From a virus (taxonomy: Duplodnaviria; Heunggongvirae; Uroviricota; Caudoviricetes): 48,174 nucleotides of DNA. Below, in pieces: positions 14,339-31,824 of the stretch (within the stretch, counting starts at the first letter, position 1; every line of letters starts with the position of its first letter). The notes under the pieces were generated by a model. It ran no database searches. It had not been told where the DNA came from and was given only the letters and a program-made list of their open reading frames with translations. Both the position numbers and the translations under genes were made by a program. The DNA lies in the IMG/VR virus record IMGVR_UViG_2711768016_000013; one strand, 5' to 3'.

Positions 14339-14496
14339 TTGATTACATACTGGCTAGAAAAAAGGTGTTACCTTGGTTTATCTTTGTCCGGCAAGGTGCG
14401 CTCATTAATCTTAAGTAAATTTATTGCTCAAGTATTCAGATTACTTCTTATGGTTGAAGTCTCCTGTCAATGTAGAACCAATATATTTACAAAAAT

Positions 14497-14535
14497 GAGA
14501 CCCGTCGGGGATAGCCCTGCCGGGTCTGACTGTTA
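14497..14535 (-). terminator. Hairpin plus T-run downstream of the minus-strand gene 14557..14895
   Basis: AGACCCG...CGGGTCT stem followed by CATTTTTG on the minus strand. Confidence 0.4.
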
Positions 14536-14556
14536 AAGCATTTTTAATATGATCAT

Positions 14557-14895
14557 CTATTTTTTGGTGCTATAGACTTTTTCGCCCGAAAAGTCTGGAG
14601 CGACCCAAAAGTTAATATTAAACTGAGCATCATCGCTTAGTTCAACACGGTGCCAGTATTGTGGTGGGCTTGTTGCAAAAGCGCCAGCATTAATGACTAC
14701 TTTTATCTCCGGTTCAGTAGCATTCTCATCAGTAAAACCATAATATGTTACAGTGCCTTCCATTACGCACAACTGCCCAAAAACACCTGCTGCTGTATTA
14801 TGATGTGTTAATAACGCTGAAGGTACGTTCTCTTTTGTGAAGAACGGAGTTGAGCGTTTGATTACCCAATCTTTAGGAATTCTCTTGTGTGTCAT
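14557..14895 (-). CDS. Hypothetical protein, possibly cupin-like (DUF1971-like); accessory gene on opposite strand
   Basis: ATG at 14895 with GGAGGAGG 7 nt upstream; MTHKRIPKDWVIKRSTPFFTKENVPSALL...; fold assignment tentative. Confidence 0.55.
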   Translation of the reverse strand: MTHKRIPKDWVIKRSTPFFTKENVPSALLTHHNTAAGVFGQLCVMEGTVTYYGFTDENATEPEIKVVINAGAFATSPPQYWHRVELSDDAQFNINFWVAPDFSGEKVYSTKK

Positions 14896-15708
14896 AACCA
14901 CCTCCTCCAAAACATGCATTAAAAATGCATCTTTTGGAGGGTTATGTCAAGCTGTTATGAAACACATAATTGATATGTTGATTAGAGGAGAAGATAGAAT
15001 AAATATGGTTGTTTTTCGTATAACTATTTGTTTTACTTTTAGTTTATGCATTCTGTGTGTTAGGAATAAGTTATTAAAGTTTAATCAAAAAATCTCGATG
15101 TAGTCCACATAGATTACTGTTACTGAACCTTATTGTGTGTATTAGTTGTGTTCTGAAATTTCAGCTTAATTATTTATGATGTATTTTTTAACGATAAATA
15201 TTTTCCCAGGATACCTTTACTGTGTATATAAATAAATTATATACGCATAAATAATGTAAAGGCGTCCTTTTAGATATATCTTATCAAATGTTAATGACTT
15301 GAGTGGGAAATATGATTCCAGCAACTTATCATGTGGCTACTTTATAAAAATAATGCCCATATAAAACAACAAGCGAAAAGGATTACGGATAAAAAAGGAG
15401 CGAGATGTGCGAACTTGTTATTTTCCATGTTTAACCACCTTAAATAATTGATGATGACGGGATGATTGCATCTGTAATGCTTTTATTGAAATGTTATGAT
15501 AAAAAAGAACTTTTGCATAACATTAAAATGTAATTTATCTAATCGTTTTTAATAATAAGTGTCGTATTTCTATCCTTGTACCAGCTATTTGATATGTAGT
15601 GTTTGTTCATGCTATGTGGGGCTTTACACCATAGCCAGTTTATTTATACTTTATTCGTCAGCCTGAACAACTGGCATCTGCTGCGCTGCGCCATCGAGAG
15701 ATTGAGAA

Positions 15709-16308
15709 ATGGCGCATATACAACTGGTCAAACAAACCTCTTCTGGTTTACTTCTCCCGGCGACGCCGGAGAGTTGCGATTTTCTGCATCAAATCAAAAT
15801 AGGTGAGTGGATACACGCAGACTTTAAGCGTGTGCGTAACTACGCATTCCACAAGCGTTTTTTCAAACTCCTGCAACTGGGATTCGATTACTGGACTCCG
15901 GTCGGTGGGGCGATCACGCCTCGCGAACGAGAACTGCTGTCTGGTTTCGTTGATTACCTGTGCGAATCAGTTGGTCGGGAACACACGCCAGCCCTGAGTG
16001 ATGCCGCAGAGCAATACCTTAACACCGTTGCGACTCGTAGAACCCGGGATACGGCGTTGCTAAAGTCGTTTGAGGCTTTCCGCGAGTGGGTAACCATTCA
16101 GGCCGGATTTTACACCGAGCATATTTATCCGGACGGTAGCCGTGGGCGTCGGGCAAAATCCATCGCTTTTGCGAATATGGACGAAGTCGAGTTTCAGCAG
16201 GTTTATAAATCTGTACTGAATGTGCTGTGGAACTGGATTCTGTTCCGTAAATTCTCCTCTCAGGAGGAAGTTGAAAATGTGGCCGCACAACTACTGGAGT
16301 TTGCGTAA
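15709..16308 (+). CDS. Lambdoid nin-region protein (DUF1367-like, tentative)
   Basis: 199-aa ORF in the position of nin genes upstream of Q. Confidence 0.65.
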   Translation: MAHIQLVKQTSSGLLLPATPESCDFLHQIKIGEWIHADFKRVRNYAFHKRFFKLLQLGFDYWTPVGGAITPRERELLSGFVDYLCESVGREHTPALSDAAEQYLNTVATRRTRDTALLKSFEAFREWVTIQAGFYTEHIYPDGSRGRRAKSIAFANMDEVEFQQVYKSVLNVLWNWILFRKFSSQEEVENVAAQLLEFA

Positions 16309-16598
16309 TGGTGAATTTACGTAAAGCGGCTAAAGGCCAGATGTGCCAGATCAGAATCCCTGGCTACTGCAATCACAATCCCGAAACCTCTGTGCTGGCG
16401 CATTACAGGCTGGCGGGGACGTGCGGAACAGCGACAAAACCACATGATATGCAGGCGGCGATAGCCTGTAGCTCATGCCACGATCTAATCGACGGGCGGG
16501 TAAAAACCAGCGATTACACCAAAGAAGAATTGCGCCTGATGCATGCTGAAGGGGTTTTTCGCACACAAGAAATCTGGAGAAAGAAAGGTCATTTATGA
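16308..16598 (+). CDS. Small Cys-rich nin-region protein (YbcO-like, putative nuclease)
   Basis: 96 aa with CQIRIPGYCNHNPE...CSSCHDL Cys cluster; start overlaps upstream stop. Confidence 0.65.
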   Translation: MVNLRKAAKGQMCQIRIPGYCNHNPETSVLAHYRLAGTCGTATKPHDMQAAIACSSCHDLIDGRVKTSDYTKEELRLMHAEGVFRTQEIWRKKGHL

Positions 16599-17137
16599 TT
16601 TACCCAACGAATACAGGAAAAAGCGGAGAACACCTTCGCCTCACCACGCTGGAAAGTGTCTGGATTCAGGGAAAACTACGTATGTGGGGGCGCTGGTCGT
16701 ATATTGGCGGTGGCAGGTCAGGGAATATGTTCAATCAGTTGTTGGCATCCAAAAAACTGACGAAAACAGCCATTAATGAAGCCCTGCGCAGAATGAAAAA
16801 AGCGGGAATAGAGAAAGCTGAGCTGGAAGCGTTTTTGCGAGAGATGATCAACGGCAAGCAAAAGAGCTGGCTGGCGCATTGTACTGATGCAGAGGCGTTA
16901 TGTATTGATCGAGTCATAAGTGAGGTGCTGGCAGAGCATCCAGGATTGATTTGCATTCTCCGGCAACGCTATGAAGGGCGGGGGATGACTAAGCGCAAAA
17001 TGGCTGAATTGCTAAATGATGCACACCCAGAGTGGTGTTTTAGCACATGCGAAAAACGGATTGCTAATTGGTTAGCTGTTGCTGAGTATGCCCTATATAT
17101 TCCCATGCGTGAATCATTTGCTGAGAAAATGGCTTGA
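16595..17137 (+). CDS. Putative late-gene antiterminator Q-like protein
   Basis: Position just upstream of terminator hairpins and the lysis cassette; N-terminal W-x-G-R-W pattern reminiscent of Q proteins; assignment from memory. Confidence 0.5.
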   Translation: MIYPTNTGKSGEHLRLTTLESVWIQGKLRMWGRWSYIGGGRSGNMFNQLLASKKLTKTAINEALRRMKKAGIEKAELEAFLREMINGKQKSWLAHCTDAEALCIDRVISEVLAEHPGLICILRQRYEGRGMTKRKMAELLNDAHPEWCFSTCEKRIANWLAVAEYALYIPMRESFAEKMA

Positions 17138-17220
17138 TTTCTTACGTATAAACTGCTTCAATTTTGCTATGCTTCGCAAAGCTGTATCGCGAGGCGGATT
17201 GCAGACATGGACATCGTAAA

Positions 17221-17244
17221 AAAACCGCTTAATGCGGTTTTTTT
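17221..17244. terminator. Rho-independent terminator hairpin with A-run/T-run flanks (possibly bidirectional)
   Basis: AAAACCGC-TTAAT-GCGGTTTT followed by TTT. Confidence 0.6.
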
Positions 17245-17564
17245 ACGTCAGGAAAGCAGGGGAGAATGCTGCTAGTTGGGCAACTGGTCTTTCTGCTCCA
17301 AATTATAACAGAGACCAGTTATAGTTTCGGTGCTGTGTTTTTTTTACAATATTGTGATAACACATTGCTGGCGGGAGTTTTGATATTTCTTGGCAGGGGC
17401 TGATGATGCGTTATCCTGATGTCGTCAACTCATATAAAATGAGATGAGAGATCATTGCAGGGTGGTTTGTAATTCGCTGTTTAGCGGGACAATATGTTGT
17501 CTGATACAAGACACCCGACGCCTCAGATTACTATAATAAAGACGAAGCATCCTTTGTATTGACC

Positions 17565-17590
17565 AACCGCCTGTTTAGGCGGTTCTTTTT
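17565..17590 (+). terminator. Rho-independent terminator, candidate tR'-like site for Q antitermination
   Basis: AACCGCC-TGTTTA-GGCGGTT followed by CTTTTT; TATAAT at 17533-17538 just upstream. Confidence 0.5.
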
Positions 17591-18181
17591 GGGCTGGTTT
17601 ATTGTATGCCAAATGATTATTAAAAAGGTTGTGTTAATAACAAGATCCGAAATAATATGCCTGCATATTTTTATCTTGCTTATATTCTGCATATTGTGCA
17701 TAGCAGGCTCATCCCTGCAATCAAAACTGTATGATGAGTATTTTTTGTTTTCCTTTTTTCCAGTCATCTGATGATGACCTGCTTCTTTTTAATCCGGATC
17801 GACATCAGTTTTTTAAGATAATTCCTGCGAGTTATATGCATAAATGCCACAAACTCCGCATTTTATGTGGTTGGGAGTTGCCGGGCGCGCAGTGAGTTTG
17901 CTAAGAAAACTCCTGCATGGTGAATCCCCCTGTGCGGTGGGGTGATACCATTAACCTTTTCTGTCGCCGACAGGTATCACGAACATTTTGTTCACCGGGA
18001 GGCACCCGGCACCATGCACTTCAATAGATTCTCTCCACATTATGGATATTCTTTCAGAATATCCCACGCAGACTTTGTGTAAATGTTAACAAATGTGCGT
18101 TTTATTTGATCTGATTCGCTGTTTGAGCGTCCAAAACAACGGTATATATAATCCTTTACTATATGACATATGTGAGGAAAA

Positions 18182-18610
18182 ATGGGTTTTCGTAGCGCAT
18201 CAATTCTTACGTTGATTATTAGTGGGATTATTATCGGGTGCACTGATGCTGTATCGACAAATTATCATGACCGTACATCATATTACTCCGATAAAGCAAT
18301 AGAGACACAGTATGTGAGTTCATCTGAACGTACTTCTGATGTTAGTGAGGATATCCGTCTGTATGCCCATCAAATCAAGAGCGCCATCGAAAAACAGTTC
18401 GGGGATGCGAGTAAGTATTCAGGAAAAGAGTGTACACTGAGAATGCATATGGCCCCGAATGGCCTTCTACTGGAGGTTAAAAGAGAAAGTGGAGACCTCG
18501 ATTTATGTCGTGAAGCGATGAATGCGATAAAGAATGCTGATATACCTGCCCCCCCTTCGCCGGAAGTATATAAAGTATTTCAAAATGGGGTGCTGGATTT
18601 TAAACCCTGA
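18182..18610 (+). CDS. Lipoprotein with TolA C-terminal (domain III)-like domain
   Basis: Signal peptide and Cys; C-terminus ...CTLRMHMAPNGLLLEVK...PEVYKVFQNGVLDFKP closely resembles the TolA C-terminus as remembered; RBS GAGGAAAA. Confidence 0.65.
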   Translation: MGFRSASILTLIISGIIIGCTDAVSTNYHDRTSYYSDKAIETQYVSSSERTSDVSEDIRLYAHQIKSAIEKQFGDASKYSGKECTLRMHMAPNGLLLEVKRESGDLDLCREAMNAIKNADIPAPPSPEVYKVFQNGVLDFKP

Positions 18611-18760
18611 TATTTATTGTTTTGTAATAAACGGTTTCGGCTTAGGTTTGTTCTGACACAGCTACGGCACTGAGCTAAATTTAGCGGATAGTCAGCTCTG
18701 AGCCAGTGGCGGACGTAACAACTACTATTGCTGAGATTTTAATGGATTGAGGAGCAAGAA

Positions 18761-19156
18761 GTGGGATTAAAGAAAATCGTTATGTTGACTTTTTGGGTCG
18801 GTTTTGTTGCGGGATGCACACCTTTACACCCTTCAGATTGCCACAAAACTACTGCTACAGGTAGTTGCAGTTCAGGACGCTGGGATGATCAGGATGAATG
18901 GGGGGCGCAAGCGCGGGGAATCAGAGCTGCAATTAATGCCAAACTTGATGAGCCGCATAACTGGAAAGGGAAAAAATGCAGGTTGCATATGGAATTCTCT
19001 CAGGATGGCACGGCGTTAAAAATATCTACCAGTAACGGTGATAAAGCCTATTGCGAAGCGATAAAGTCCGCAGCTCATAAAGCCAAATTTCCGGCCTTCA
19101 ACAATCCGGAAGTCTACAGAGATTTTCAGAAATCTGGCTTTGACATGCGAGGTTAG
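18761..19156 (+). CDS. Paralogous lipoprotein with TolA-domain-III-like C-terminus
   Basis: GTG start with GGAG RBS; lipobox VAGC; C-terminal KCRLHMEF...AFNNPEVYRDFQKSGFD aligns with the upstream paralog. Confidence 0.6.
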   Translation: MGLKKIVMLTFWVGFVAGCTPLHPSDCHKTTATGSCSSGRWDDQDEWGAQARGIRAAINAKLDEPHNWKGKKCRLHMEFSQDGTALKISTSNGDKAYCEAIKSAAHKAKFPAFNNPEVYRDFQKSGFDMRG

Positions 19157-19407
19157 CTCTTCAATTACTATATCTCATTCATAGCAAACTGACAGATTTG
19201 ATGATGTTCTATATACGAAACCTGTGATGTCAAGTCTGAGCTAATACAAATAAACATAATATCAGAGAAATACATTTTATTAGCTCGCTACGGCGAGCTT
19301 TTTATATTGCATCGTCTCCAGCATATATATCAATTAAGGCTCTGATTGATGTGTCTGAAAGCCTACACATAATAACTATGCCATCCGTTCCGTGCGGAGG
19401 TGAGGCT

Positions 19408-19623
19408 ATGAAATCCATGGACAAAATTTCAACAGGCATTGCCTACGGCACCTCCGCAGGCAGTGCTGGCTACTGGTTTTTACAGTTGCTCGATAGAGTA
19501 ACTCCGTCACAGTGGGCTGCAATCGGTGTGCTGGGTAGTCTGGTATTTGGCCTGCTGACGTACCTGACAAACCTTTATTTCAAGATTAAAGAAGATAAGC
19601 GCAAGGCTGCGAGAGGTGAATAA
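19408..19623 (+). CDS. Pinholin, phage 21 S-like, with dual-start motif MKSM
   Basis: [29 protein letters not shown]... two TM segments, charged C-terminus; GGAGGTGAGG RBS. Confidence 0.85.
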
Positions 19624-20120
19624 TGCCTCCATCATTACGAAAAGTCGTTGCTGCTGCTATTGGTGGCGGAGCAATTGCTATAGCATCAGTGTTAATCACT
19701 GGCCCAAGTGGTAACGATGGTCTGGAAGGTGTCAGCTACATACCATACAAAGATATTGTTGGTGTATGGACTGTATGTCACGGGCATACAGGAAAAGACA
19801 TCATGCTCGGTAAAACGTATACCAAAGCAGAATGCAAAACACTCTTGAATAAAGACCTTGCCACTGTCGCCAGACAAATTAACCCGTACATCAAAGTCGA
19901 TATACCGGAAACAACGCGCGGCGCTCTTTACTCATTCGTTTACAACGTGGGTGCTGGCAATTTCAGAACATCGACGCTTCTTCGCAAAATAAACCAGGGC
20001 GATATCAAAGGCGCATGTGATCAGCTACGTCGCTGGACATATGCTGGCGGTAAGCAATGGAAAGGTCTCATGACTCGTCGTGAGATTGAGCGTGAAATCT
20101 GTTTGTGGGGTCAGCAATGA
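19623..20120 (+). CDS. SAR endolysin (lysozyme with N-terminal signal-anchor-release domain)
   Basis: Gly/Ala-rich N-terminal TM segment [18 protein letters not shown] followed by lysozyme-like domain; start overlaps holin stop. Confidence 0.88.
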
Positions 20121-20581
20121 ACAGAGTAACCGCGATTATCTCCGCTCTGGTTATCTGCATCATCGTCTGCCTGTCATGGGCTGTTAATCATTACCGTGAT
20201 AACGCCATTACCTACAAAGCCCAGCGCGACAAAAATGCCAGAGAACTGAAGCTGGCGAACGCGGCAATTACTGACATGCAGATGCGTCAGCGTGATGTTG
20301 CTGCGCTCGATGCAAAATACACGAAGGAGTTAGCTGATGCGAAAGCTGAAAATGATGCTCTGCGTGATGATGTTGCCGCTGGTCGTCGTCGGTTGCACAT
20401 CAAAGCAGTCTGTCAGTCAGTGCGTGAAGCCACCACCGCCTCCGGCGTGGATAATGCAGCCTCCCCCCGACTGGCAGACACCGCTGAACGGGATTATTTC
20501 ACCCTCCGGGAACGACTGGTAATGATGCAGGCCCAACTTGAAGGTGCTCAGCAATACATAACCGAGCAGTGTTTAAAGTAA
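20117..20581 (+). CDS. Rz i-spanin
   Basis: N-terminal TM then coiled-coil periplasmic domain; ATGA overlap with endolysin stop. Confidence 0.85.
20337..20522 (+). CDS. Rz1 o-spanin lipoprotein embedded in +1 frame of Rz
   Basis: Lipobox VVGC, proline-rich (PPPPP) mature part, fully inside Rz. Confidence 0.75.
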
Positions 20582-22176: not shown

Positions 22177-22313
22177 TATATGGCTGATTTATAATTGTGA
22201 GTTTAATATTATGTTGACTCACTCATTGATCCAATACCTAACTTTACCAGCAACACCTCCGCCCCCAGTAGCACTGGCTGCTGGGGTGCGTTTTATTCAT
22301 AAAGCAAGGCTGT

Positions 22314-23102
22314 ATGAGCGAGAAATTAAAGATAGTCTATCGCCCATTACAAGAATTGTCACCGTATGCGCACAACGCCAGGACGCACAGTACTGAGCAG
22401 GTGGCACAACTGGTAGAAAGTATTAAGCAATTCGGCTGGACTAATCCGGTGCTGATTGACGAAAAGGGCGAAATTATTGCGGGTCACGGTCGTGTTATGG
22501 CGGCTGAAATGCTCAAAATGGATTCTGTTCCGGTCATTGTTCTGTCTGGCCTGACGGATGAGCAGAAAAAGGCGTACCGCCTGGCAGATAATCGCCTGCC
22601 GATGAATGCTGGCTGGGATGAAGATCTGTTGCGGATGGAGCTGTCGGACCTAATCAATGCTGATTTTGATGTCTCCCTGACAGGCTTCATCCCGGCAGAA
22701 ATTGATGAACTGTTGACGGATGTTTTGCCCGGTACAGGAAATGAGGAGGAGCCGTATACGACGAAAATTGATACGCCTGTTTATGAGCCGTCAGGCGGTA
22801 AACCGGATATCAGTGAACTGTACGACGATACGAAAACTCAGGAGCTGATCAGCCGGATACGTTCGGCGTCCCTTGATCCTGATATTGAGAAATTCCTCCT
22901 GTGTGCAGCAGAACGTCACACGGTGTTTAATTTCAGCAGAATTGCGGACTATTACGCTCATGCCCCCGCTGAAATTCAGTGCCTTTTCGAGGAGTCGGCG
23001 CTGGTGATCATTGATTATCAGCAGGCTATTGAAAATGGATTTGTCCGAATGACGCAGCGCATGGTGGAGATCATGCATGGCGGGGAGGAGGAATATGCGT
23101 GA
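22314..23102 (+). CDS. ParB-like nuclease domain protein (full-length YnaK-like)
   Basis: ParB/Srx signature ...IIAGHGRVMAA...; 262 aa; overlaps the start of the next gene. Confidence 0.7.
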   Translation: MSEKLKIVYRPLQELSPYAHNARTHSTEQVAQLVESIKQFGWTNPVLIDEKGEIIAGHGRVMAAEMLKMDSVPVIVLSGLTDEQKKAYRLADNRLPMNAGWDEDLLRMELSDLINADFDVSLTGFIPAEIDELLTDVLPGTGNEEEPYTTKIDTPVYEPSGGKPDISELYDDTKTQELISRIRSASLDPDIEKFLLCAAERHTVFNFSRIADYYAHAPAEIQCLFEESALVIIDYQQAIENGFVRMTQRMVEIMHGGEEEYA

Positions 23103-24027
23103 TGATTTTTGCGCCTTTATTCTGACTCACGGGCGACCGGACAAAGTTCTGACTTACCGGACGTTGCGTCGTGCTGGCTATACCGGGAAAATTTTTATCG
23201 TTGTTGATGATGAAGATAAGACACGGCATCAGTACATGGCTGAATTTGGTGAACAGGTGCTGGTATTTTCCAAAGCCGATATTGCTAGTCGTTTTGACGA
23301 AGCCGATAATTTTAGTGACCGCCGCTCAATTTTTTACGCCCGTAATGCCTGTTTCGACCAGGCAAAACTGGTCGGGTGTAAATACTTCATTCAGCTCGAT
23401 GATGATTATCACGAGTTCCAGTTTCGGGTGGATCGCAACTATGACCAGGCCTATTTCCCGATAAGGAAACTGGATGAGATCCTTTCTGAAATGCTTGCGT
23501 ACTACGAATCAATACCTGCTCTTTCCATCGCTATGTCGCAGGGCGGGGATTTTCTTGGTGACAATGGCGGCCATGCTTCGTGGGTGAAACGCAAGGCAAT
23601 GAACAGCTTTATCTGTTCGGTTGATCGACCGTTCTCATTCATGGGGCGCATTAACGAGGATGTGAATACGTACACGAATCTCGGTCGCTGTGGTGAATTG
23701 TTTATGACGATCGGTGCTGTCCAGTTAGGGCAGAAACAGACGCAGAAAAACAGCGGCGGAATGACCGAGCTGTATCTGGATTCCGGAACCTACGTTAAAA
23801 GTTTTTACTCCGTCATGTATGCGCCGTCGTGCGTAAAAATCTCACTTATGGGTGCCAGTCATAAACGCATTCACCATCAGGTCACCTGGAACAACGCTGC
23901 AGTAAAAATCCTTCACGAAAAATACAGGAAGAAGACACCCTGCATATCAATGGGGGTGACAAATGATTCCGTATTCGAAAGTCGAGTCTCTGGCAGCGTG
24001 CCGGATGACTGCACAACAAATCGCTGA
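23095..24027 (+). CDS. Glycosyltransferase-like protein (GT-A fold pattern with DxD), function unknown
   Basis: N-terminal ILTHGRPD...IFIVVDDED and downstream IQLDDDY resemble GT2 motifs; ATG with GGAGGAG RBS, 8-nt overlap with ParB-like gene. Confidence 0.45.
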   Translation: MRDDFCAFILTHGRPDKVLTYRTLRRAGYTGKIFIVVDDEDKTRHQYMAEFGEQVLVFSKADIASRFDEADNFSDRRSIFYARNACFDQAKLVGCKYFIQLDDDYHEFQFRVDRNYDQAYFPIRKLDEILSEMLAYYESIPALSIAMSQGGDFLGDNGGHASWVKRKAMNSFICSVDRPFSFMGRINEDVNTYTNLGRCGELFMTIGAVQLGQKQTQKNSGGMTELYLDSGTYVKSFYSVMYAPSCVKISLMGASHKRIHHQVTWNNAAVKILHEKYRKKTPCISMGVTNDSVFESRVSGSVPDDCTTNR

Positions 24028-24214
24028 CGTTCTGGATGTTGATCTGAACCGACTGAAAGAAAATCGGGAAGCAATGACAGATTTTTATGCGGCCATCCGT
24101 AAGGGCAGAGCGAAAGGTGAAGCCGAGTTACGAGCGGCATTGTTTAAGCTTGCCAGAAAAGGGGATGCCTTTGCTCTGCGCGAACTACTCAGGGTGGATA
24201 AAAATCAGGACTAA
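24005..24214 (+). CDS. Small hypothetical protein upstream of terminase small subunit
   Basis: ORF 23963..24214; likely start at MTAQQIADV (24005); basic, helical. Confidence 0.4.
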   Translation: MTAQQIADVLDVDLNRLKENREAMTDFYAAIRKGRAKGEAELRAALFKLARKGDAFALRELLRVDKNQD

Positions 24215-24217
24215 CTG

Positions 24218-25312
24218 ATGAGCAGACCGGACTGGGGGGCGTTGCAGCAGGAGTATATTGCTGAATACACCCGCTCCGGTATATCTCCGGTGGCATGGTG
24301 TGAAGCAAGGGGACTGAATTACGCAACAGCCCGTCGTTACATCAAAAAAACTCCGAAAAATGCGCAGACAGAAATGTGCAAAACTGCGCAAAAAAGTGCG
24401 CAGAAAAAATCTGCGCAGACTGCACAAAAGCGGAACGAAAAATCTCAGGAAAAAAAGCCAGTATTCGATGCGGGCCTGAATGAGGGCGACGCGGAGGAAT
24501 TTTCGTTCTGTCCCGATGAATTCGGCATTTCTGACCAGCAGGCTAAGTTTGCGATGCTTGTTGCTCAGGGTAAAAAGCCGACAGAGGCGTACCGACTAGC
24601 CGGTTATGAGGGGCAAGGTGCGACAGCTAACAGCAACGCCAGTCGTATGCTTAGAAATGCCAGGGTTTTTCGCGCTATCAGCTACTTCCGCAATCAGTAC
24701 CAGAAACGCTATACCGCAGACCTGGATTTACTAGTGAGTCAGTTGATGGCTATTGTCCTGGCCGACCCCAATCAGCTTGCACAATTTCGCCGTGTTAACT
24801 GCCGTTATTGCTGGGGCGAGAATCATCTCTACCAGTGGCGCGATATAGCAGAATTCGACAAGGCAGCGGCGCAGGCTTCCAGAGATGGCAAACCCGAACC
24901 GGAATATGGAGGCCTCGGCTTTGTTGATAACGCCATACCCAATCCGGACTGCCCGAAGTGCTGCGGTGAGGGAACGGGACAGCTTTATATGGCTGATACC
25001 ACTCTGCTTGATGGGGATGCGCGGCAATTATATGCAGGGGCAAAATTCGGAAAATTCGGCGTTGAGATCCTGCTGGAGGATAAGGCTGCCGCCCGGCGTG
25101 AATTGTTGCGTTTGTTTTCTGCTGGCGGGGCTTTATGTGCAGATAAGCGGCTACGGGAACTGGAAATTGAACGGCGCAGAATGGAAAACCAGAAGCTGCG
25201 CAAAGAGATCGAAACGGTGGAAGATAATGAACATCCCCAGCCTGTGGCGATCAATATTAATGTGGTTGATGCCAGAGTAAGGAGTGATGAAGATGATCTC
25301 TCCGACGCTTAA
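24218..25312 (+). CDS. Terminase small subunit
   Basis: Position immediately upstream of the large terminase; N-terminal HTH-like region; coiled C-terminal part. Confidence 0.7.
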   Translation: MSRPDWGALQQEYIAEYTRSGISPVAWCEARGLNYATARRYIKKTPKNAQTEMCKTAQKSAQKKSAQTAQKRNEKSQEKKPVFDAGLNEGDAEEFSFCPDEFGISDQQAKFAMLVAQGKKPTEAYRLAGYEGQGATANSNASRMLRNARVFRAISYFRNQYQKRYTADLDLLVSQLMAIVLADPNQLAQFRRVNCRYCWGENHLYQWRDIAEFDKAAAQASRDGKPEPEYGGLGFVDNAIPNPDCPKCCGEGTGQLYMADTTLLDGDARQLYAGAKFGKFGVEILLEDKAAARRELLRLFSAGGALCADKRLRELEIERRRMENQKLRKEIETVEDNEHPQPVAININVVDARVRSDEDDLSDA

Positions 25313-26594
25313 TGTGCCTCAGGCGCGATTTCTTTCAATGCCCCATAAATTTAAAGCCTATATTGCTGGTTTTGGCTCGGGCAAAACATGGGTTGGGTGT
25401 GGCGGCATATGCAAGGGGATTTGGGAGCATCCAGGTATAAATCAGGGATATTTTGCGCCAACGTATCCCCAAATTCGCGATATTTTTTACCCTACAGTGG
25501 AAGAAGTTGCTGCTGACTGGGGATTGAACGTAAAAATTAATGAGGGAAATAAAGAGGTTCACTTTTATTACGGACGCCAGTATCGGGGAACCACTATCTG
25601 CAGATCGATGGAGAAGCCACAAACGATCGTCGGTTTCAAAATTGGTAATGCGTTGGTGGATGAACTGGACATTTTGCCGAAGGAAAAAGCCAGAACGGCG
25701 TGGCGCAAGATAATTGCACGTATGCGTTATAAGATTGATGGACTTCGCAACGGTATTGACGTTACAACCACGCCGGAAGGATTCAAATTTGTCTACGAGC
25801 AGTTTGTTAAAGCCGTGCGTGAAAAAACAGAGCTGGCCTCACTGTATGGTCTGGTGCAGGCATCTACTTTCGATAATGAAAAGAACCTGCCAGCAGATTA
25901 CATTCCTTCGCTTCTTGAATCATACCCTCCAGAGCTGATTAAAGCCTATCTTCGAGGACAGTTTACTAACCTGACAAGTGGTACTGTTTACCATCAGTTT
26001 GACCGGAAACTGAATAATTGCGAAGAAGTGGAGCAGCCAGGGGAGCCGATTTATATTGGGATGGATTTTAACGTTGGAAAGATGGCGGGAATCGTCCATG
26101 TGCTGCGTTTGGGGCTTCCATGTGCGGTAACTGAAATCATCAATGCCTACGATACGCCGGATATGATCCGCATCATTAAAGAACGCTTCTGGCTGTATGA
26201 TGGGAATGATTACCGGAAAGTGAGGGAAATTTATATTTATCCAGATGCTTCCGGGGATTCCAGAAAATCAAGTAACGCAAGTACGACGGATATAGCCCAG
26301 CTTAAGCAGGCTGGTTTTAACGTTGTGGTGAACAGCTCGAACCCGCCAGTAAAAGATCGCGTTAACTCAATGAATGCAATGTTCTGCAATGCCAATGGTG
26401 AGCGTCGCTATAAAGTTAATGTGAAGCGTTGCCCGTTATATGCCGAATCTCTGGAGCAACAGGTCTGGGATGAGAAGGGGGAGCCTGATAAAAAATCTGG
26501 CAATGATCACCCGAATGATGCCGGAGGTTATTTCATCGTTAAGCAATTCCCTATTGTCAAACCGACCGGAAGAGTCACATCACTTCGGATTTAA
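25293..26594 (+). CDS. Terminase large subunit (ATPase/nuclease)
   Basis: Walker A-like GFGSGKT; acidic nuclease-region residues; AAGGAG RBS about 9 nt before ATG 25293. Confidence 0.88.
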   Translation: MISPTLNVPQARFLSMPHKFKAYIAGFGSGKTWVGCGGICKGIWEHPGINQGYFAPTYPQIRDIFYPTVEEVAADWGLNVKINEGNKEVHFYYGRQYRGTTICRSMEKPQTIVGFKIGNALVDELDILPKEKARTAWRKIIARMRYKIDGLRNGIDVTTTPEGFKFVYEQFVKAVREKTELASLYGLVQASTFDNEKNLPADYIPSLLESYPPELIKAYLRGQFTNLTSGTVYHQFDRKLNNCEEVEQPGEPIYIGMDFNVGKMAGIVHVLRLGLPCAVTEIINAYDTPDMIRIIKERFWLYDGNDYRKVREIYIYPDASGDSRKSSNASTTDIAQLKQAGFNVVVNSSNPPVKDRVNSMNAMFCNANGERRYKVNVKRCPLYAESLEQQVWDEKGEPDKKSGNDHPNDAGGYFIVKQFPIVKPTGRVTSLRI

Positions 26595-26596
26595 TT

Positions 26597-28003
26597 ATGG
26601 CTGATATATCAACACCCAACCTCGACTATAACGATATGCTGGAGGCGTGGGATATTAACGACGCACTGATGGGCGGTACGCTTGAAATGCGCAGGCAGGG
26701 GGAAAATTATCTCCCAAAATGGCCTAACGAAGATGAAGACGCTTATAAAAAACGCCTGTCTGTGGCTACGCTACTTCCTGTGTATGAAGAAAGCATCAAG
26801 CAAAATATTGGGCGCATATTTGCAGAGCCGACAGTATTGAGTGAGGAAACGCCGGCAAAAATCAGGGAATATGCAGAAAATATCGACATGGAGGGGAGCC
26901 GACTGGATGTGTGGGCGCAGCAATTTTTCAGCCTCGCATTTCAGTATGGTGTGGCACATGCGCTGGTGGACTATCCACGAACGGATATGAAAGAGATTCG
27001 GACAAAAGCCGATGAAAACGCGACCGGTGGTCGTCCGTACGTTACGATGCTGAATCCACGCCAGGTTATTGGATGGAAATCGAAAGTTGAAAAAGGGAAA
27101 GTTGTTCTCACTGATTTGCGTATAAAAGAGGTCATCATTATTGATGGTGATGATTTCGGGCAGAAGAAGGTGGAGCAGATCCGCCATATTATGCCCCGTC
27201 GAGTTGAAATTTATCGACGTAGCGAAGGCACTAATGGCGAATCTGTCTGGACGCTTCATGAGTCATGGAATACCAGCCGTGATGATATTCCTCTGGTAAC
27301 ACTGTACACGAAGAAAACAGGATTTATGCGTGGTACACCGCCATTGCTTAATCTTGGCTTGCTGAATATCAAGCACTGGCAAAGCCAGAGCGAGCAGGAC
27401 AATATTCTTCATGTTGCCCGCGTTCCATTGCTGGTGGCCTACGGGCTGGACAGGAATGAAGAACTGACGGTTGGTGCATCCACCGCTACGATTTTTGAGG
27501 ACAGAACAAAAAATGGCCTCGAATATGTTGAACATAGTGGCGCAGCGATAGAATCTGGCGAAACATCACTTGAGAAGCTGGAAAATCAGATGCGTCATGC
27601 CGGCGCTAAACTTCTGCGTGCTGAAAATACATCCACCAAATCTGTTGATCAGACTAATGAAGAGCGAATGCAGGAAAACTCGCCGCTTTATACAATGGCG
27701 AACTCCCTCGAAGATGCCCTCGATAATATTCTCCAGATAATGGCGGAATGGATCGGAGAGAGTTGCGGTGGCAATGTGGATGTGCGCACTGAACTGGATG
27801 TATCTGCCCAGGTGTTTGACTCATCCTCCGCGCTGGCTGTTCAGTCATTGCGTCAGGGCGGTGATATACGTCAGATTGATGCGGTTCGGGTGTTGCAGGC
27901 GTTGAAATTTATCGATCAGGATTCCCGTCCAGAGGAAGTGATCGATGAATTAAAAAATCAGAGTGTAATGCTGATGGAAATCAATGATGCAAACCGTGAA
28001 TGA
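26597..28003 (+). CDS. Portal protein
   Basis: 468-aa ORF directly after terminase, size and position typical of portal. Confidence 0.75.
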   Translation: MADISTPNLDYNDMLEAWDINDALMGGTLEMRRQGENYLPKWPNEDEDAYKKRLSVATLLPVYEESIKQNIGRIFAEPTVLSEETPAKIREYAENIDMEGSRLDVWAQQFFSLAFQYGVAHALVDYPRTDMKEIRTKADENATGGRPYVTMLNPRQVIGWKSKVEKGKVVLTDLRIKEVIIIDGDDFGQKKVEQIRHIMPRRVEIYRRSEGTNGESVWTLHESWNTSRDDIPLVTLYTKKTGFMRGTPPLLNLGLLNIKHWQSQSEQDNILHVARVPLLVAYGLDRNEELTVGASTATIFEDRTKNGLEYVEHSGAAIESGETSLEKLENQMRHAGAKLLRAENTSTKSVDQTNEERMQENSPLYTMANSLEDALDNILQIMAEWIGESCGGNVDVRTELDVSAQVFDSSSALAVQSLRQGGDIRQIDAVRVLQALKFIDQDSRPEEVIDELKNQSVMLMEINDANRE

Positions 28004-29099
28004 ACGGCTGCGTGATGAATCAATTGCTCATGCAGTCTGGATATCCCGCTATAGCACTGGCGTGGCTGCCAGAATGGTGAAAATACTGAATGACAGCGAT
28101 GCGGAACTTACTGCTCGCCTGCTGATAGCACTGGACAGCCTCGATCCAGGTAGTTTTACCGTTAAGCGCCTGGAGTCACTTCTGGCGAGCGTCAGAGAGG
28201 TTAACCGCACTGCTATTAACAGCATGTTTACCAGTCTCTCCGGAGAGCTGAACGAGCTGGCAATTTATGAGGCTGGTTATCAGTTAAGTCTGTTTGATTC
28301 TATGCTACCTGATTTTGTTGCTGATGTTCACCCTCTGGTTGGTATCTCTCCTGATGCACTTTATGCCGCTGCAATGGCGCGACCATTCCAGGGACGACTG
28401 CTCAGTGAGTGGGCCTCAGATCTTGAGGCGGATCGGCTCAGACGCATAACAAATACAGTGCGTCAGGGTTTTTTGCTGGGGGATACCAATGAGCAGATCG
28501 CAAGAAAAATTCGGGGACATGTCAGTAAGGGATTTCAGGATGGTGCATTGCAGATGAGCCGGGCTAATGCGGCCAGCATTGCAAAAACAGCGGTTGGACA
28601 TCTTGCTGCTACTGCCCGTGAGAGTTTTGCCAGCGCGAATAATGATTTGATTAAGGGTAAGCAATGGTTATCAACGCTTGATAATCGTACTACGCCACAA
28701 TGTCGAATCAGGGATCGCCTCAAATATACGCTGAATAATAAACCTGTAGGTCACAGCGTGCCTTATTTGCAGGGGCCGGGAAAAATTCATTTCTGCTGCC
28801 GCTCAACGGAAACGTTCATTCTGAAATCAGCGAAGGAACTGGGTATTGATGTTCGCGATATTTCCCCGGCTGAGCGGGCCAGCATGGATGGCGTGGTGGC
28901 CGGAGATACAACCTACAGGGAATGGTTTTTGCGTCAGCCTTACACCAGACAAAAACAGATTGTGGGGGAAAGCCGAGCAAAGCTGATTCGGGATGGTGGT
29001 ATGTCGCCAGATGAATTTTACACCGATAAAGGCGAATGGCTGACGCTGAAGCAGCTCCGTGAGCGTGATGCACAGGTATTCAGAAAAGCAGGGATTTAA
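27984..29099 (+). CDS. Head morphogenesis protein (Mu F / SPP1 gp7-like minor head protein)
   Basis: 371 aa following portal with overlap; family assignment from motif memory. Confidence 0.65.
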   Translation: MMQTVNERLRDESIAHAVWISRYSTGVAARMVKILNDSDAELTARLLIALDSLDPGSFTVKRLESLLASVREVNRTAINSMFTSLSGELNELAIYEAGYQLSLFDSMLPDFVADVHPLVGISPDALYAAAMARPFQGRLLSEWASDLEADRLRRITNTVRQGFLLGDTNEQIARKIRGHVSKGFQDGALQMSRANAASIAKTAVGHLAATARESFASANNDLIKGKQWLSTLDNRTTPQCRIRDRLKYTLNNKPVGHSVPYLQGPGKIHFCCRSTETFILKSAKELGIDVRDISPAERASMDGVVAGDTTYREWFLRQPYTRQKQIVGESRAKLIRDGGMSPDEFYTDKGEWLTLKQLRERDAQVFRKAGI

Positions 29100-29118
29100 A
29101 TAAATCATTTATTACAAC

Positions 29119-29143
29119 AGGCTACCTTCGGGTGGCCTTTTTT
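29119..29143 (+). terminator. Intra-operon hairpin with UUCG tetraloop and T-run
   Basis: AGGCTACC-TTCG-GGTGGCCT followed by TTTTT. Confidence 0.55.
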
Positions 29144-29203
29144 ATTGCTGCGATCCGGATGGTGAGCAGCGTAACTGTCGGAAGACTTAAACCAGGTACT
29201 AAT

Positions 29204-29968
29204 ATGAAACTGAAAACGGTCGAGATTAACGGAAAACAATACGCAGAAATTGATACTGCTGGCCTGCCAGTTTATGTGCACGACGATGGTAAAGAAATTG
29301 GCTTCGATGCACCGCTGGCGACAAAAAAAATTACAGAGCTTAATGGCGAGGCAAAAAATCATCGCCTGGCTAAAGAAGCTGCAGAGGAAAAACTGGCTAA
29401 GTTTGCCGCTATCGAAGACCCGAAGAAGGCGATCGAGGCACTGGAAATGCTGTCAAAAATCGACCAGAAAAAGCTGCTCGATGCGGGACAGGTTGACCAG
29501 GTTAAGGCAGAAATTACGAAAAATTTTCAGCAGCAATTAGATGAAGAAAAGCAACGCTCTCAGATGCTGGAGAAGCAGCTTTACGATTCTATGATTGGCG
29601 GTAGTTTTGCGGGTTCAAAATATATTGCCGATAAAATTGCGATTCCGGCAGATTTATTACAAGCCCGCTTCGGGCAGGCATTCAAAGTGGAAGAAGGGAG
29701 GATCGTTGCTTATGACGCTTCCGGCAACAAAATTTATTCCCGCGCGAAGCCTGGCGAACTGGCGCAGTTTGATGAGGCGCTGGAGTTCCTTGTCGAAAAT
29801 TACCCTCAGAAAGACTACATCCTGAAAGCCAGTGGCAACAATGGCGGCGGCTCCCGTCCGACACAGCATGATATTGGTCAGAAAACGATGAAACGCTCTG
29901 CTTTTGATGCACTGGATGTTGCAGGTAAGCAAAACGCATTGAAAGACGGTATCACAATCGTTGATTAA
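29204..29968 (+). CDS. Putative scaffolding protein
   Basis: Charged, helix-rich protein (EEKQRSQMLEKQL) between head morphogenesis and capsid genes. Confidence 0.55.
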   Translation: MKLKTVEINGKQYAEIDTAGLPVYVHDDGKEIGFDAPLATKKITELNGEAKNHRLAKEAAEEKLAKFAAIEDPKKAIEALEMLSKIDQKKLLDAGQVDQVKAEITKNFQQQLDEEKQRSQMLEKQLYDSMIGGSFAGSKYIADKIAIPADLLQARFGQAFKVEEGRIVAYDASGNKIYSRAKPGELAQFDEALEFLVENYPQKDYILKASGNNGGGSRPTQHDIGQKTMKRSAFDALDVAGKQNALKDGITIVD

Positions 29969-30066
29969 CACATTTGTCAGCTTCCGGATGGGAGCTGGTG
30001 TCAGGGCTGGATAGCTCATTACTCCATCTATTCACAATTACGCAAATTTTTAAGGAATATTTAATT

Positions 30067-31206
30067 ATGGCTGGAAATACCCTGACCGGGTTGATCCCGA
30101 CTATTTATACCGCCCTGGATGTTGTATCCCGTGAGCAGGTAGGTTTTATCCCTGCGGTAGCAAAAAACGCAAAAGCTGACGCCGCAGCAAAAGATCAGAC
30201 GGTAACCGCGCCAGTTGCGCCTGAGGCGAAAACCGAAGATATCGTACCGGGGCCGTCAGCTCCGAATACCGGTGATCAAAATATTGGCACTGTTGATGTA
30301 AAAATTACTAAATCCAAAATGGCACCGGTTAAATGGAATGGTGAAGAACAACTGGCTCTTGGCCCTTCAGGGACTTACAACACCATTCTGGCTGATCAGT
30401 TCAAGCAGGCTTTTCGCGCCCTTGCAAACGAGGTTGAGGCTGATCTTGGTGCGTTGTATTTCGGTGCTTCCCGCGCCGTGGGAACCGCAGGGACAACGCC
30501 GTTTGGTGTTAAAGATGATCTTTCTGATGCTGCTCTGGCTCGTCAGGTTCTGGAGGATAACGGCGCACCGACAACCGATCTGCAGATGGTGCTTGGCTCC
30601 ACTGCCATTGCTAATTTGCGCGGAAAACAGTCTGTATTGTTTAAAGTGAATGAATCCGGCACTGAACAGCTACTGCGTGAGGGCGTGTTGGGGCGTCTGG
30701 AGGGATTCAATATTCACAGTTCGGCAGGTGTGAAACGAGCGCCAAAGGTTGCTGCAACTGGTTATCTCGTGAATGGAGAGAAAAAAGAAGGCGATGTTCT
30801 TATTTCCATTGATACTGGTTCGGGGAGTATTTCTGCAGGTCAGATTGTTACGTTCGCTGGTGATCCGAATCAGTATGTTGTGGCAGCAGCGACCAGCAAT
30901 CTGATTACTCTTGCAGCGCCCGGACTGCGTCAGGATCTGGCCGATGATACTGCCATCACAGTTGTTGGGGCCTTTACTGCAAATATGGCGTTTGATCGCA
31001 ACGCGTTTCTGCTGGCATCCCGTACTCCGGCAATGCCGGAAGGTGGCGATAATGCTGATGATGTAATGAATGTTACGGACCCGATTTCAGGGATTACGTT
31101 CCAGATTGCACTGTATCGTCAGTATCGCCAGGTGCGCTATGAAGTTGGACTGGCATGGGGTGTTTCATCAGTGAAGCCGGCACATGGTTGTCTGATTCTT
31201 GGTTAA
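30067..31206 (+). CDS. Major capsid protein
   Basis: ATG at 30067 with AAGGAA RBS; about 380 aa; followed by a strong terminator hairpin. Confidence 0.78.
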   Translation: MAGNTLTGLIPTIYTALDVVSREQVGFIPAVAKNAKADAAAKDQTVTAPVAPEAKTEDIVPGPSAPNTGDQNIGTVDVKITKSKMAPVKWNGEEQLALGPSGTYNTILADQFKQAFRALANEVEADLGALYFGASRAVGTAGTTPFGVKDDLSDAALARQVLEDNGAPTTDLQMVLGSTAIANLRGKQSVLFKVNESGTEQLLREGVLGRLEGFNIHSSAGVKRAPKVAATGYLVNGEKKEGDVLISIDTGSGSISAGQIVTFAGDPNQYVVAAATSNLITLAAPGLRQDLADDTAITVVGAFTANMAFDRNAFLLASRTPAMPEGGDNADDVMNVTDPISGITFQIALYRQYRQVRYEVGLAWGVSSVKPAHGCLILG

Positions 31207-31216
31207 ACATTCAAAC

Positions 31217-31236
31217 GGGGCTTCGGCCCCATTTTT
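31217..31236 (+). terminator. Rho-independent terminator hairpin after capsid gene (UUCG tetraloop)
   Basis: GGGGC-TTCG-GCCCC followed by ATTTTT. Confidence 0.6.
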
Positions 31237-31248
31237 AATGGGGGGCAT

Positions 31249-31425
31249 ATGGCCGGATTAACTAAAGAGCAAAGAGCACAGCGTGAAGCCGCACAAAAAA
31301 CGCAAATTGAGTTAGTGGTTATGGTGACCGATTATCAGATGTTTCCCGGCGCACCAACTATCGCTAATGTTCATCCTGATGAAGTTGACAACTGGAAGGC
31401 TATGGGCTGGAAAACTCAGGAGTAA
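31249..31425 (+). CDS. Small hypothetical ORF (58 aa) between capsid and head-tail genes
   Basis: Hand translation MAGLTKEQRAQREAAQKTQIELVVMVTDYQMFPGAPTIANVHPDEVDNWKAMGWKTQE; fills an otherwise empty gap. Confidence 0.3.
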   Translation: MAGLTKEQRAQREAAQKTQIELVVMVTDYQMFPGAPTIANVHPDEVDNWKAMGWKTQE

Positions 31426-31428
31426 CAC

Positions 31429-31824
31429 ATGATCACTTACGTGACCTGTGATGACGTTGATAATGCGTTTGGGAACGCCTGGACGAGTGAGAACGCTAAA
31501 AATAAAGCTGTTTTAATGGCTAATGCCTGGCTTAATGGCTTCAACCTGAAAATTAACCCATCCCGTATTCCGGAAGAGGTAAAACTTGCGGGAGCATATG
31601 CAGCCAGAATTGCCTCATTCGGTAAGTTGTTTCAGCAGAAAAATGATTCTGGCGTTGTTATCAGTAAAGCCGTGTCGGCTGACGGGGTCAGTGTATCGAA
31701 ATCATTTTCTGAGTTGCCAGCAAACAGCACTGCATTGCTTGAACCCGATTTACAGCTTGCGATAGCACTGCTGAAACCGTACGGACTTAGTCGCTCACAA
31801 GTCAGGGTTGTGAGGGGGGGATAA
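31429..31824 (+). CDS. Head-tail connector / head completion protein (putative)
   Basis: 131-aa ORF in canonical position, translationally coupled to downstream genes. Confidence 0.55.
   Translation: MITYVTCDDVDNAFGNAWTSENAKNKAVLMANAWLNGFNLKINPSRIPEEVKLAGAYAARIASFGKLFQQKNDSGVVISKAVSADGVSVSKSFSELPANSTALLEPDLQLAIALLKPYGLSRSQVRVVRGG

Follow-up and report, generated by a model that had tools for sequence, protein, structure and literature searches.

Two overlapping genes lie immediately upstream of the terminase genes in a 48,174-nt stretch of viral DNA (IMG/VR record IMGVR_UViG_2711768016_000013; Caudoviricetes), referred to here as the window. The window represents a complete E. coli prophage of the lambdoid Rac type. 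Gene 1 (22314..23102, + strand) encodes a ParB-like protein of 262 aa, the full-length form of ynaK of E. coli K-12, and is named 'ynaK: ParB/Srx family N-terminal domain-containing protein' in RefSeq. Gene 2 (23095..24027, +) encodes a protein of 310 aa (MRDDFCAF...), the RefSeq name of which is 'GREB1-related protein', and is assigned below to a family of GT-A glycosyltransferases. A preliminary description of the locus had placed both genes at these positions with an 8-nt overlap, and the open reading frame list and the sequence confirm this. The motifs it had pointed out, GHGR in gene 1 and ILTHGRPD, IVVDDED and IQLDDDY in gene 2, are all present in the translations.

The overlap between the end of gene 1 and the start of gene 2 is ATGCGTGA (23095-23102). 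The junction as a whole (23084..23102, +) consists of a Shine-Dalgarno sequence, GGAGGAGG (23084-23091), the gene 2 ATG at 23095 and the gene 1 TGA at 23100-23102, an arrangement from which the two genes appear to be translationally coupled. There is an alternative in-frame ATG at 23077 that would extend the gene 2 product to 316 aa; homologues and RefSeq begin at MRDDF. When compared with diverged alleles, gene 1 has a ratio of nonsynonymous to synonymous substitution rates (dN/dS) of 0.09-0.14 and gene 2 one of 0.07-0.19, which indicates that both are under purifying selection. Because both genes have family matches as well as low dN/dS values (0.07-0.19 overall), neither appears to be a chance open reading frame.

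The ParB-like protein and its C-terminal domain

The N-terminal part of the gene 1 product (aa 4-120; 22323..22673, +) is a ParB/Srx CTPase-fold domain. Gene 1 matches Pfam ParB_N (PF02195) with 29.3 bits (cutoff 26.3) and phrog_620 at 1.7e-90. In profile searches against the PDB, the domain matches Noc/Spo0J/ParB at 2e-12 to 2e-7, and Foldseek returns Noc, ParB-CDP, PadC and KorB. A closely related module is found in fusions of ParB with DNA methyltransferases, i.e. phrog_498 (6e-51) and the PADLOC model MTase_II (1.5e-38). The similarity is confined to the first ∼140 residues of gene 1 (aa 3-141) and covers positions 31-171 of 633 in phrog_498 and 13-151 of 436 in MTase_II. These matches stop before the methyltransferase catalytic domain, which is absent from gene 1. 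The earlier suggestion that ParB-domain proteins of phages are partnered with DNA methyltransferases is in keeping with both models and with published work (PMC12704722; PMC4738411). Gene 1 differs from the fusions (PMC12704722) in that another C-terminal domain (CTD) replaces the methyltransferase domain; catalysis would be supplied in trans by the gene 2 product.

The GHGR motif (aa 57-60; 22482-22493, +) is kept in 43 of 48 non-redundant partner proteins, and N21, R60 and D92-N93 are at least 93% conserved. Residues R23, R60 and N93 correspond to phosphate-contacting residues and are kept in gene 1. In place of the hydrolysis Glu of the canonical GERR motif, gene 1 has His. Gene 1 resembles the CTP-gated clamps ParB, Noc and KorB in fold and in most phosphate-binding residues, but differs from them in having GHGR for GERR, a different C-terminal domain, no helix-turn-helix (HTH) or parS-binding domain, and no ParA partner or motif.

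A canonical partition (ParABS) function was rejected for gene 1, because there is no parS target to look for, no HTH Pfam match or other recognisable DNA-binding domain was found in it, no ParA is encoded among the open reading frames of the window, and the ParA-binding motif LG[KR]G[LFI] is absent from its N-terminus, MSEKLKIVYRP. In addition, gene 1 scores 38 bits against the canonical ParB model TIGR00180, which has a cutoff of 58, and nothing in NCBIfam exceeds its cutoff. A nuclease activity, as implied by the label 'ParB-like nuclease', was also considered and dropped, as nothing was found in its support. Pfam, PDB profiles and the AlphaFold2 (AF2) model agree on an architecture consisting of a nucleotide-binding domain (NBD) followed by a C-terminal domain, without a DNA-binding domain.

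The CTD has two parts. The first is a linker motif, Y148-T-x-K151-I-x-x-P155-x-Y157-E-P-x-G-x-x-P164 (22746..22811, +), which is invariant, lies in a predicted disordered segment and has the consensus Y-[ST]-x-K-[IV]-x-x-P-x-Y-E-P-x-G-x-x-P (aa 148-164) across homologues. The second is a helical domain (AAxRHxVFxF ... IAxYYAH ... Q-L-E-SALVIIDY ... AIENGF; 22812..23078, +). Profile searches found no Pfam or PDB relative of the CTD. Its conservation equals or exceeds that of the ParB domain in viruses ranging from those of E. coli, Lactobacillus and Nocardia to those of haloarchaea. When the CTD was scored against all 1.84 billion cluster representatives of a protein set clustered at 50% identity, 1195 of these were found to contain it at E<=0.001. 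It is situated at the C-terminal end in almost all of the 150 matches listed, most of which are proteins of ∼250-310 aa. Where longer CTD proteins were scanned against Pfam, ParB_N precedes the CTD, and proteins of 128-200 aa correspond approximately to the CTD alone. The AF2 model of the partner has a mean pLDDT of 63.2, and values in the CTD are mostly below 50. Structure-based conclusions are confined to the better-modelled parts of the two proteins, which do not include the CTD or the last third of the transferase.

The transferase and its pairing with the C-terminal domain

Gene 2 matches the Pfam family TAGT (TET-associated glycosyltransferase, PF20691) at 3.7e-34, with 118.9 bits against a cutoff of 27.5. 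The match extends over aa 8-222 and takes up profile positions 4-205 of 205. The gene also matches phrog_842 at 7.5e-104, which PHROG labels 'beta-glucosyl-HMC-alpha-glucosyltransferase', and its close homologues number more than 8000. The conserved residues are R14, D38/D41, D68-E69-D71, D102-D103-D104, Q149/G151/D152, N187-E188-D189 and H260-H261. Among these, R14, D102-D103-D104 (DDD; 23398-23406, +) and E188-D189 (ED; 23656-23661, +) are invariant or nearly so, both in 14 homologues and in 48 non-redundant homologues. The set R...DDD...ED is that of phage DNA GT-A enzymes and of the base-J glucosyltransferase JGT (bioRxiv 10.1101/2023.12.21.572611).

The AF2 model of gene 2 has a mean pLDDT of 66.6; block means for the N-terminal 150 residues are mostly above 85, and the last third is mostly below 50. 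Foldseek matches in the PDB include SpsA, glycogenin, ColGalT1 and LARGE1, and the top matches in BFVD are TAGT proteins (1e-19; TM 0.65-0.71). No solved structure within the gene 2 family is detectable by sequence. From sequence and model together, the gene 2 product is a GT-A glycosyltransferase of the TAGT family. The protein had been called glycosyltransferase-like from its motifs, and the fold and profile searches lead to the same assignment rather than to a non-transferase family. Gene 2 shares family membership, the GT-A fold and the R...DDD...ED residues with the T2/T6 enzymes, the metavirome glycosyltransferases that act on 5-hydroxymethylcytosine (5hmC), trypanosome JGT and GREB1. 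It differs from the T-even TAGTs in being too distant for detection by tblastn and in belonging to a clade with an obligate CTD partner.

The last ∼25 aa of the E. coli transferase (23953-24027) are either missing or not conserved in homologues, whose length is 285-290 aa. This tail overlaps a small open reading frame of 83 aa (23963..24214, +; RefSeq start 24005) that resembles part of a terminase small subunit.

The pairing of the CTD with the transferase is strict. In a viral sample of 80 diverse IMG/VR contigs, fetched with patterns derived from the CTD only, a TAGT gene lies directly downstream of the CTD, on the same strand and usually overlapping, in 79; the 80th contig ends too early. 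A second sample comprised 80 loci from species-representative bacterial genomes of at least 12 phyla (Bacillota, Pseudomonadota, Bacteroidota, Verrucomicrobiota, Desulfobacterota, Saccharibacteria, Melainabacteria, Acidobacteriota, Chlorobiota, Bdellovibrionota, Spirochaetota and Actinomycetota). The transferase adjoins the CTD gene in all 76 of these loci that have enough downstream sequence. Among cultured phages (50,697 records), the CTD is present in 28, and these are exactly the 28 that have an intact transferase of the gene 2 clade. They include phages of E. coli, Salmonella, Vibrio, Lactobacillus and Nocardia, a faecal phage and Haloarcula virus HHTV-2.

The ParB module is less constant. 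In Vibrio phages of 191 kb the partner consists of the CTD alone; it is 139 aa in length, its gene immediately precedes that of the transferase, and no ParB domain is encoded within 7 kb of it. The CTD-only form is seen at L091:6459-6878 (Vibrio phage pv27) and also in genome loci L251, L252 and L253. The gene order ParB(NBD+CTD), transferase, small and large terminase subunits recurs even in a Porphyromonas phage whose transferase shares just 27.5% identity. Since CTD-only partners exist and the layout is kept in diverged phages, the CTD is the obligate partner of the transferase, and the ParB module a frequent but dispensable addition. One candidate for a direct fusion of ParB and transferase, a 560-aa open reading frame at L166:5986-7668, was rejected as a Rosetta-stone case because ParB is joined there to an inserted phosphatase/nucleotidyltransferase gene, probably by a frameshift, and the contig stops short of the transferase. 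In several L. delbrueckii phages (Ld17, LL-Ku, Ld25A) the cassette is broken or has been deleted in part; in Ld25A the ParB open reading frame is joined to the final 45 residues of the transferase. From these broken copies, the pair seems to be dispensable in dairy propagation.

The position of the cassette is also conserved, and in every locus examined individually it is immediately upstream of the terminase genes. In the window these are the small subunit gene (Terminase_2; 24218-25312, +) and the large subunit gene (Terminase_6N/6C; 25284-26594, +), both assigned by Pfam. A survey of 63 viral loci with an open reading frame of at least 380 aa downstream of the transferase showed that this frame is the terminase large subunit in nearly all. 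The matches are 42 to Terminase_6N, 27 to Terminase_3, five to GpA and three to TerL_ATPase, where related models overlap; thus four unrelated terminase families follow the cassette. In L. delbrueckii phage c5, cos (1-11) is followed by the partner (90-863), the transferase (835-1713) and the terminase, and the pair are the first genes after cos. The 191-kb Vibrio phages carry the pair among replication genes, not at the terminase. In Nocardia phage NTR1 (L090, 845-3408) a large open reading frame annotated as the terminase large subunit directly follows the transferase, with no room for a small-subunit gene, and in L104, L154 and L169 a large open reading frame likewise follows directly. Perhaps the ParB-like protein helps to recognise DNA for packaging at such loci.

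Upstream of gene 1 in the window is a trkG moron, and 3′ of it lies a terminator-like hairpin with a 10-bp stem and a T-rich tail (22263..22286, +), 28 nt 5′ of the ParB start codon. No promoter-like site was found between this hairpin and gene 1. The hairpin and the lack of a promoter suggest that the pair would be expressed by read-through from the Q-antiterminated late transcript and not in the lysogen.

Neither a TET/JBP (5mYOX) or other 2OG-dioxygenase, nor a thymidylate-synthase-like hydroxymethylase, nor a DNA methyltransferase was found among the open reading frames of the 48-kb prophage; two unassigned morons of the prophage match only PHROGs of unknown function. The same applies to two small complete genomes, phage c5 (31.8 kb, 50 open reading frames) and L. 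gasseri phage phi jlb1 (38.3 kb, 54 open reading frames), which have no annotated hydroxylase, hydroxymethylase or methyltransferase. Neither has an unassigned open reading frame of the size of known phage 5mYOX proteins, and the largest 'hypothetical' protein of c5 has 208 aa. No 5mYOX dioxygenase gene lies beside the partner on its downstream side, where the gene is the transferase in 79 of 80 viral and 76 of 76 genome loci. Upstream of the partner in the 80 viral loci, TET_JBP is not among the best 25 of 62 Pfam families, which is suggestive only. By these gene contents the cassette appears to be an autonomous, self-sufficient two-gene unit.

The genes that do enter the cassette point to sugar metabolism. 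In 12 of the 80 viral loci, a gene of ∼320 aa between partner and transferase encodes a His_Phos_1 and a CTP_transf_like domain (L096, L099, L102, L106 [6722-7717], L109, L116, L118, L122, L129, L133 and L149, and in fused form L166). The CTP_transf_like domain resembles the heptose-1-phosphate adenylyltransferase domain of HldE, and it is plausible that the insert makes a special, perhaps heptose-like, nucleotide-sugar donor. A second TAGT paralogue is inserted in four genome loci (L195:4225-5058, L202:4252-5103, L224:4228-5079 and L230:641-1489). Other inserts are a TAGT-Methyltransf_23 fusion (L216:3581-5275) and a stand-alone Methyltransf_23-like gene (L252:3841-4677). The tandem TAGT and Methyltransf_23 variants suggest di-glycosylation or methylated sugars, and the inserted genes as a group suggest a real glycan pathway.

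Substrate and mode of action

We hold with middling confidence that the two genes constitute one two-subunit glycosyltransferase system of the ParB-terminase-locus class of DNA-modification systems. The preliminary description had hinted at a modification of DNA or virions by the pair, and DNA would be the acceptor favoured here. The gene 2 product would be the catalytic subunit, a GT-A transferase dependent on nucleotide sugars. The CTD, with its YEP motif and helical bundle, most likely binds the transferase and activates or targets it, and the ParB module most likely tethers the complex to double-stranded phage DNA, perhaps as a clamp gated by NTP. Sugar would be moved from a host nucleotide sugar onto phage DNA late in infection, near the packaging machinery. 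As the pair heads the packaging module in the late operon, the enzyme would work on phage DNA that has been replicated and is about to be, or is being, packaged. The product may be glycosylation at few or local sites in DNA that is otherwise canonical, as a protection against host nucleases.

Three lines of evidence argue for DNA rather than protein as the acceptor, namely the ParB module in common with DNA methyltransferases, the fixed position at the terminase genes, and the need for a universal substrate. The last point follows from the 40-47% identity that the transferases retain among viruses infecting E. coli, Lactobacillus, Nocardia, Vibrio and a haloarchaeon, whose hosts and virion modules are unrelated.

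There are precedents for parts of this scheme. The TAGT and ParB-Tls ideas reportedly originate with Iyer et al. 2013 (NAR 41:7635). The ParB-Tls locus, so named by the Aravind group, is predicted to modify phage DNA during packaging (PMC4738411; cited also in PMC8256090 and PMC13229309), and these loci resemble the present one in having a ParB-fold gene and a gene for a DNA-modifying enzyme immediately upstream of the terminases (PMC4738411; PMC8256090). The present locus differs from those descriptions in that the payload is TAGT alone, with no methyltransferase or TET/JBP found, and in that the ParB protein carries a CTD specific to TAGT neighbours. In the 5mYOX176/ParB176 system, a ParB-like protein is needed for a phage thymine dioxygenase to act on double-stranded DNA, and the pairs are cognate-specific (PMC13229309); KorB-KorA is cited there as a precedent. 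ParB176, like gene 1, is a short ParB-like protein with an NBD and a C-terminal domain, lacks an HTH and is encoded beside a DNA-modifying enzyme, and glycosyltransferases and terminases are frequent neighbours there as well (PMC13229309). The role proposed above for the ParB module is by analogy with this one dioxygenase subclass. The enzyme partner here differs in being a transferase, with no dioxygenase found, and its dependence on the ParB-like protein would be a parallel.

A number of points weigh against a DNA acceptor, and the main weakness is chemical, since canonical DNA has no hydroxyl like that of 5hmC or 5-hydroxymethyluracil (5hmU). To our knowledge, the characterised DNA enzymes of the TAGT family all need a hydroxymethyl-type hydroxyl, and we know of no precedent for a Leloir transferase that glycosylates canonical DNA directly. 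The lack of hydroxylases in the prophage, c5 and phi jlb1 counts here as well. A survey published in 2023 found that ∼65% of glycosyltransferase-containing contigs were without 5mYOX or ThyS, and set these contigs aside as less likely to act on DNA (bioRxiv 10.1101/2023.12.21.572611). No modified DNA in any carrier phage was found in the literature consulted. On the side of the partner, gene 1 has no recognisable DNA-binding domain and the Arg of GxxR is lost in the partners of Nocardia phage NTR1 and the Porphyromonas phage. The AF2 models of the CTD and of the C-terminal third of the transferase are poor. In addition, the TAGT relative GREB1 modifies a protein, as described below.

Characterised TAGT members that act on DNA glycosylate 5-hydroxymethyl-pyrimidine bases (PMC13216743; bioRxiv 10.1101/2023.12.21.572611). 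Some glycosylate 5hmC made by a phage methyltransferase and TET (PMC8256090; bioRxiv 10.1101/2023.12.21.572611), the T2/T6 enzyme adds a second glucose to glucosyl-5hmC (PMC13216743; PMC13390438), and a family member glucosylates 5hmU to base J (PMC7968844). The present phage differs in that it cannot make the acceptors 5hmC, glucosyl-5hmC or 5hmU; as no hydroxylase or hydroxymethylase is found in the prophage, the acceptor would not be phage-made 5hmC or 5hmU. A narrower proposal is that, with the ParB-like protein as adaptor, the transferase adds sugar directly to canonical, un-hydroxymethylated DNA (at a base, the ends or the backbone), possibly only near the packaging start. This is offered tentatively and we consider it rather doubtful. 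Glycosylation of the 3′-OH ends of packaged DNA was judged unlikely, because ends have to be ligated in cos phages, i.e. c5 and carriers with GpA-type terminases.

The chief rival to a DNA acceptor is protein glycosylation, where the acceptor would be the invariant Tyr/Thr of the partner, as in glycogenin, or a packaging protein. A candidate acceptor peptide is YTTKIDTPVYEPSG. The CTD is the only protein that always occurs with the transferase, its most invariant feature is the Tyr/Thr motif in the predicted disordered linker, gene 2 has glycogenin as one of its fold matches, and the problem of the missing hydroxyl disappears. GREB1 O-GlcNAcylates a protein (PMC7968844). However, the glycogenin-type matches are generic to GT-A folds, with 10-12% identity, and the N-terminal module, being common to DNA methyltransferase fusions, points to DNA delivery. 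The virion and terminase proteins of the carriers are not conserved, so that the partner itself would be the only possible common protein acceptor, and a glycosylated ParB-like protein has no evident biological role. We consider protein glycosylation unlikely. If the partner is itself glycosylated, the ParB fold would have a new role.

Classical TAGT chemistry on hydroxymethyl-pyrimidine DNA from elsewhere, i.e. a superinfecting T-even-like phage, another prophage or the host, would make the pair a device for phage competition or scavenging. Membership in TAGT and the PHROG label given above are in keeping with this, as is the action of the T2/T6 TAGT on DNA that is already modified (PMC13216743). 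The genes, however, stand behind a terminator in the late operon without a promoter of their own, the pair is also present in integrase-less phages (c5, the 191-kb Vibrio phages) and an archaeal virus, and the T-even TAGTs are too distant for retrieval by tblastn. Hosts such as Lactobacillus, Nocardia and Haloarcula are not known to supply hmC or hmU. Action on such foreign DNA thus appears improbable.

A small molecule or another acceptor that is neither DNA nor protein, such as a nucleotide or a defence signal, can likewise be given little credence. The ParB fold would then serve as an NTP-binding regulatory subunit. ParB-fold proteins bind CTP, ATP or GTP and have diverse roles other than segregation (PMC12704722), and the partner lacks a DNA-binding domain that could be found. 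Against this are the fixed position at terminases of four families, the ParB module common to DNA methyltransferases, and the absence of a match of the transferase to any PADLOC defence or anti-defence model. It is very improbable that the pair is what is left of a decaying ParB-5mYOX-GT cluster, or that it serves purely as a structural accessory of packaging whose transferase is inactive: truncated E. coli copies are common (1607 genomes matched vs 867 with at least 80% of the region) and broken copies occur in several L. delbrueckii phages, but the catalytic residues are intact, dN/dS is 0.07-0.19, pairing is strict across phyla and in small complete genomes, and accessory sugar-pathway genes have been recruited into the cassette.

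Both protein families with their database names, the ParB-Tls concept and the ParB requirement of some phage dioxygenases are already known. In the literature compared, from which Iyer et al. 2013 stands apart, we did not find a description of ParB and TAGT as a self-sufficient unit without a hydroxylase, of a distinct CTD as the true constant companion of the transferase, or of a unit that spans bacterial and archaeal viruses and recruits sugar-pathway genes. A second survey lists 'solitary' TAGTs in 288 of 753 phages (PMC13216743). The two surveys leave many phage glycosyltransferases without an explanation, and a large and coherent part of these is not solitary but forms a strict two-gene unit, with a dedicated ParB-like partner, at the packaging genes. 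If DNA is glycosylated by this unit without prior hydroxymethylation, the chemistry would be new and would bear on restriction evasion, the sequencing of phage DNA and enzyme tools. Prophages in about one-sixth of complete E. coli genomes would carry it, as would viruses from at least 12 bacterial phyla and from haloarchaea.

The K-12 remnant and other genes of the prophage

The 2.1-kb region that contains the pair is present in 1607 of 5426 complete E. coli genomes, with at least 80% of the region in 867. Derivatives of K-12 match only the first 368 nt of the 2.1-kb query. The 87-aa ynaK product of K-12 (JM109) consists of the first 85 codons of gene 1 followed by QR*, the QR being two junction codons. 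An 11.56-kb deletion joins window position 22567 to 34125 and has removed the rest of gene 1, the transferase gene, both terminase genes, the portal gene and head genes. The comparison with JM109 thus confirms the remark in the preliminary description that truncated ynaK of K-12 appears to be a remnant of gene 1. As the deletion left only a stub of 85 codons, K-12 is a natural null for the pair. No experimental work on ynaK, on the GREB1-related protein or on a pair of ParB and glycosyltransferase was found in the literature, and the pair has probably gone unstudied because the common laboratory strain lacks it. The pair is common in E. coli and directly testable there, with K-12 as the null and the 867 genomes as sources.

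Apart from three large deletions, corresponding to window positions 11015-20136, 22568-34124 and 35885-44252, Rac of K-12 (L001, JM109) aligns to the prophage at 96.6-99.9%. By this alignment the window seems to represent Rac in its intact form. The start of K-12 ydaY is at the second deletion junction (window ∼34125), upstream of the tape-measure gene. In strain EC2 (NZ_CP058571.1, L002), which is 100% identical to the window, RefSeq calls the intact 262-aa gene a truncated ynaK pseudogene of 258 nt, 'missing C-terminus', and leaves ∼520 nt unannotated (L002 3115-3895 = window 22314-23094). This is likely a misannotation, because the best-known reference protein is the 87-aa stub of K-12.

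The left part of the prophage contains, in order, the integrase gene, recT, recE, sieB, the repressor region, ydaU/ydaV-like replication genes and a gene for a Q-like antiterminator. The lysis genes, the trkG moron, the pair, and the genes for the small and large terminase subunits follow, and after these come genes for a DUF4055 portal, a Mu-F-like protein and a P22-like coat protein, the tail genes, lom and the tail fibre gene. Between the replication and Q regions are two adjacent genes (11828-12919 and 12935-13936, +) encoding 363 and 333 aa. They match phrog_17908 and phrog_16994, give weak hints of HEPN/RES-NTD1 and GNAT, and have no PADLOC match. A DUF1971 gene is located on the opposite strand (14557-14919, -). 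These genes may be prophage morons or defence candidates.

Two small proteins with TolA C-terminal domains are encoded 5′ of the lysis genes (18182-18610, 2.4e-23, and 18761-19156, 1.3e-14; both +). They might mimic TolA, which may affect the entry of colicins or filamentous phages. In a Yersinia enterocolitica prophage (L006:2180-3332), the moron slot between the lysis genes and the ParB-transferase pair, which is the slot of trkG in the window, is filled by toxin-like genes, an Enterotoxin_a/Scabin-like gene for a heat-labile-enterotoxin-like A subunit and a gene for an LT-IIB-like B subunit.

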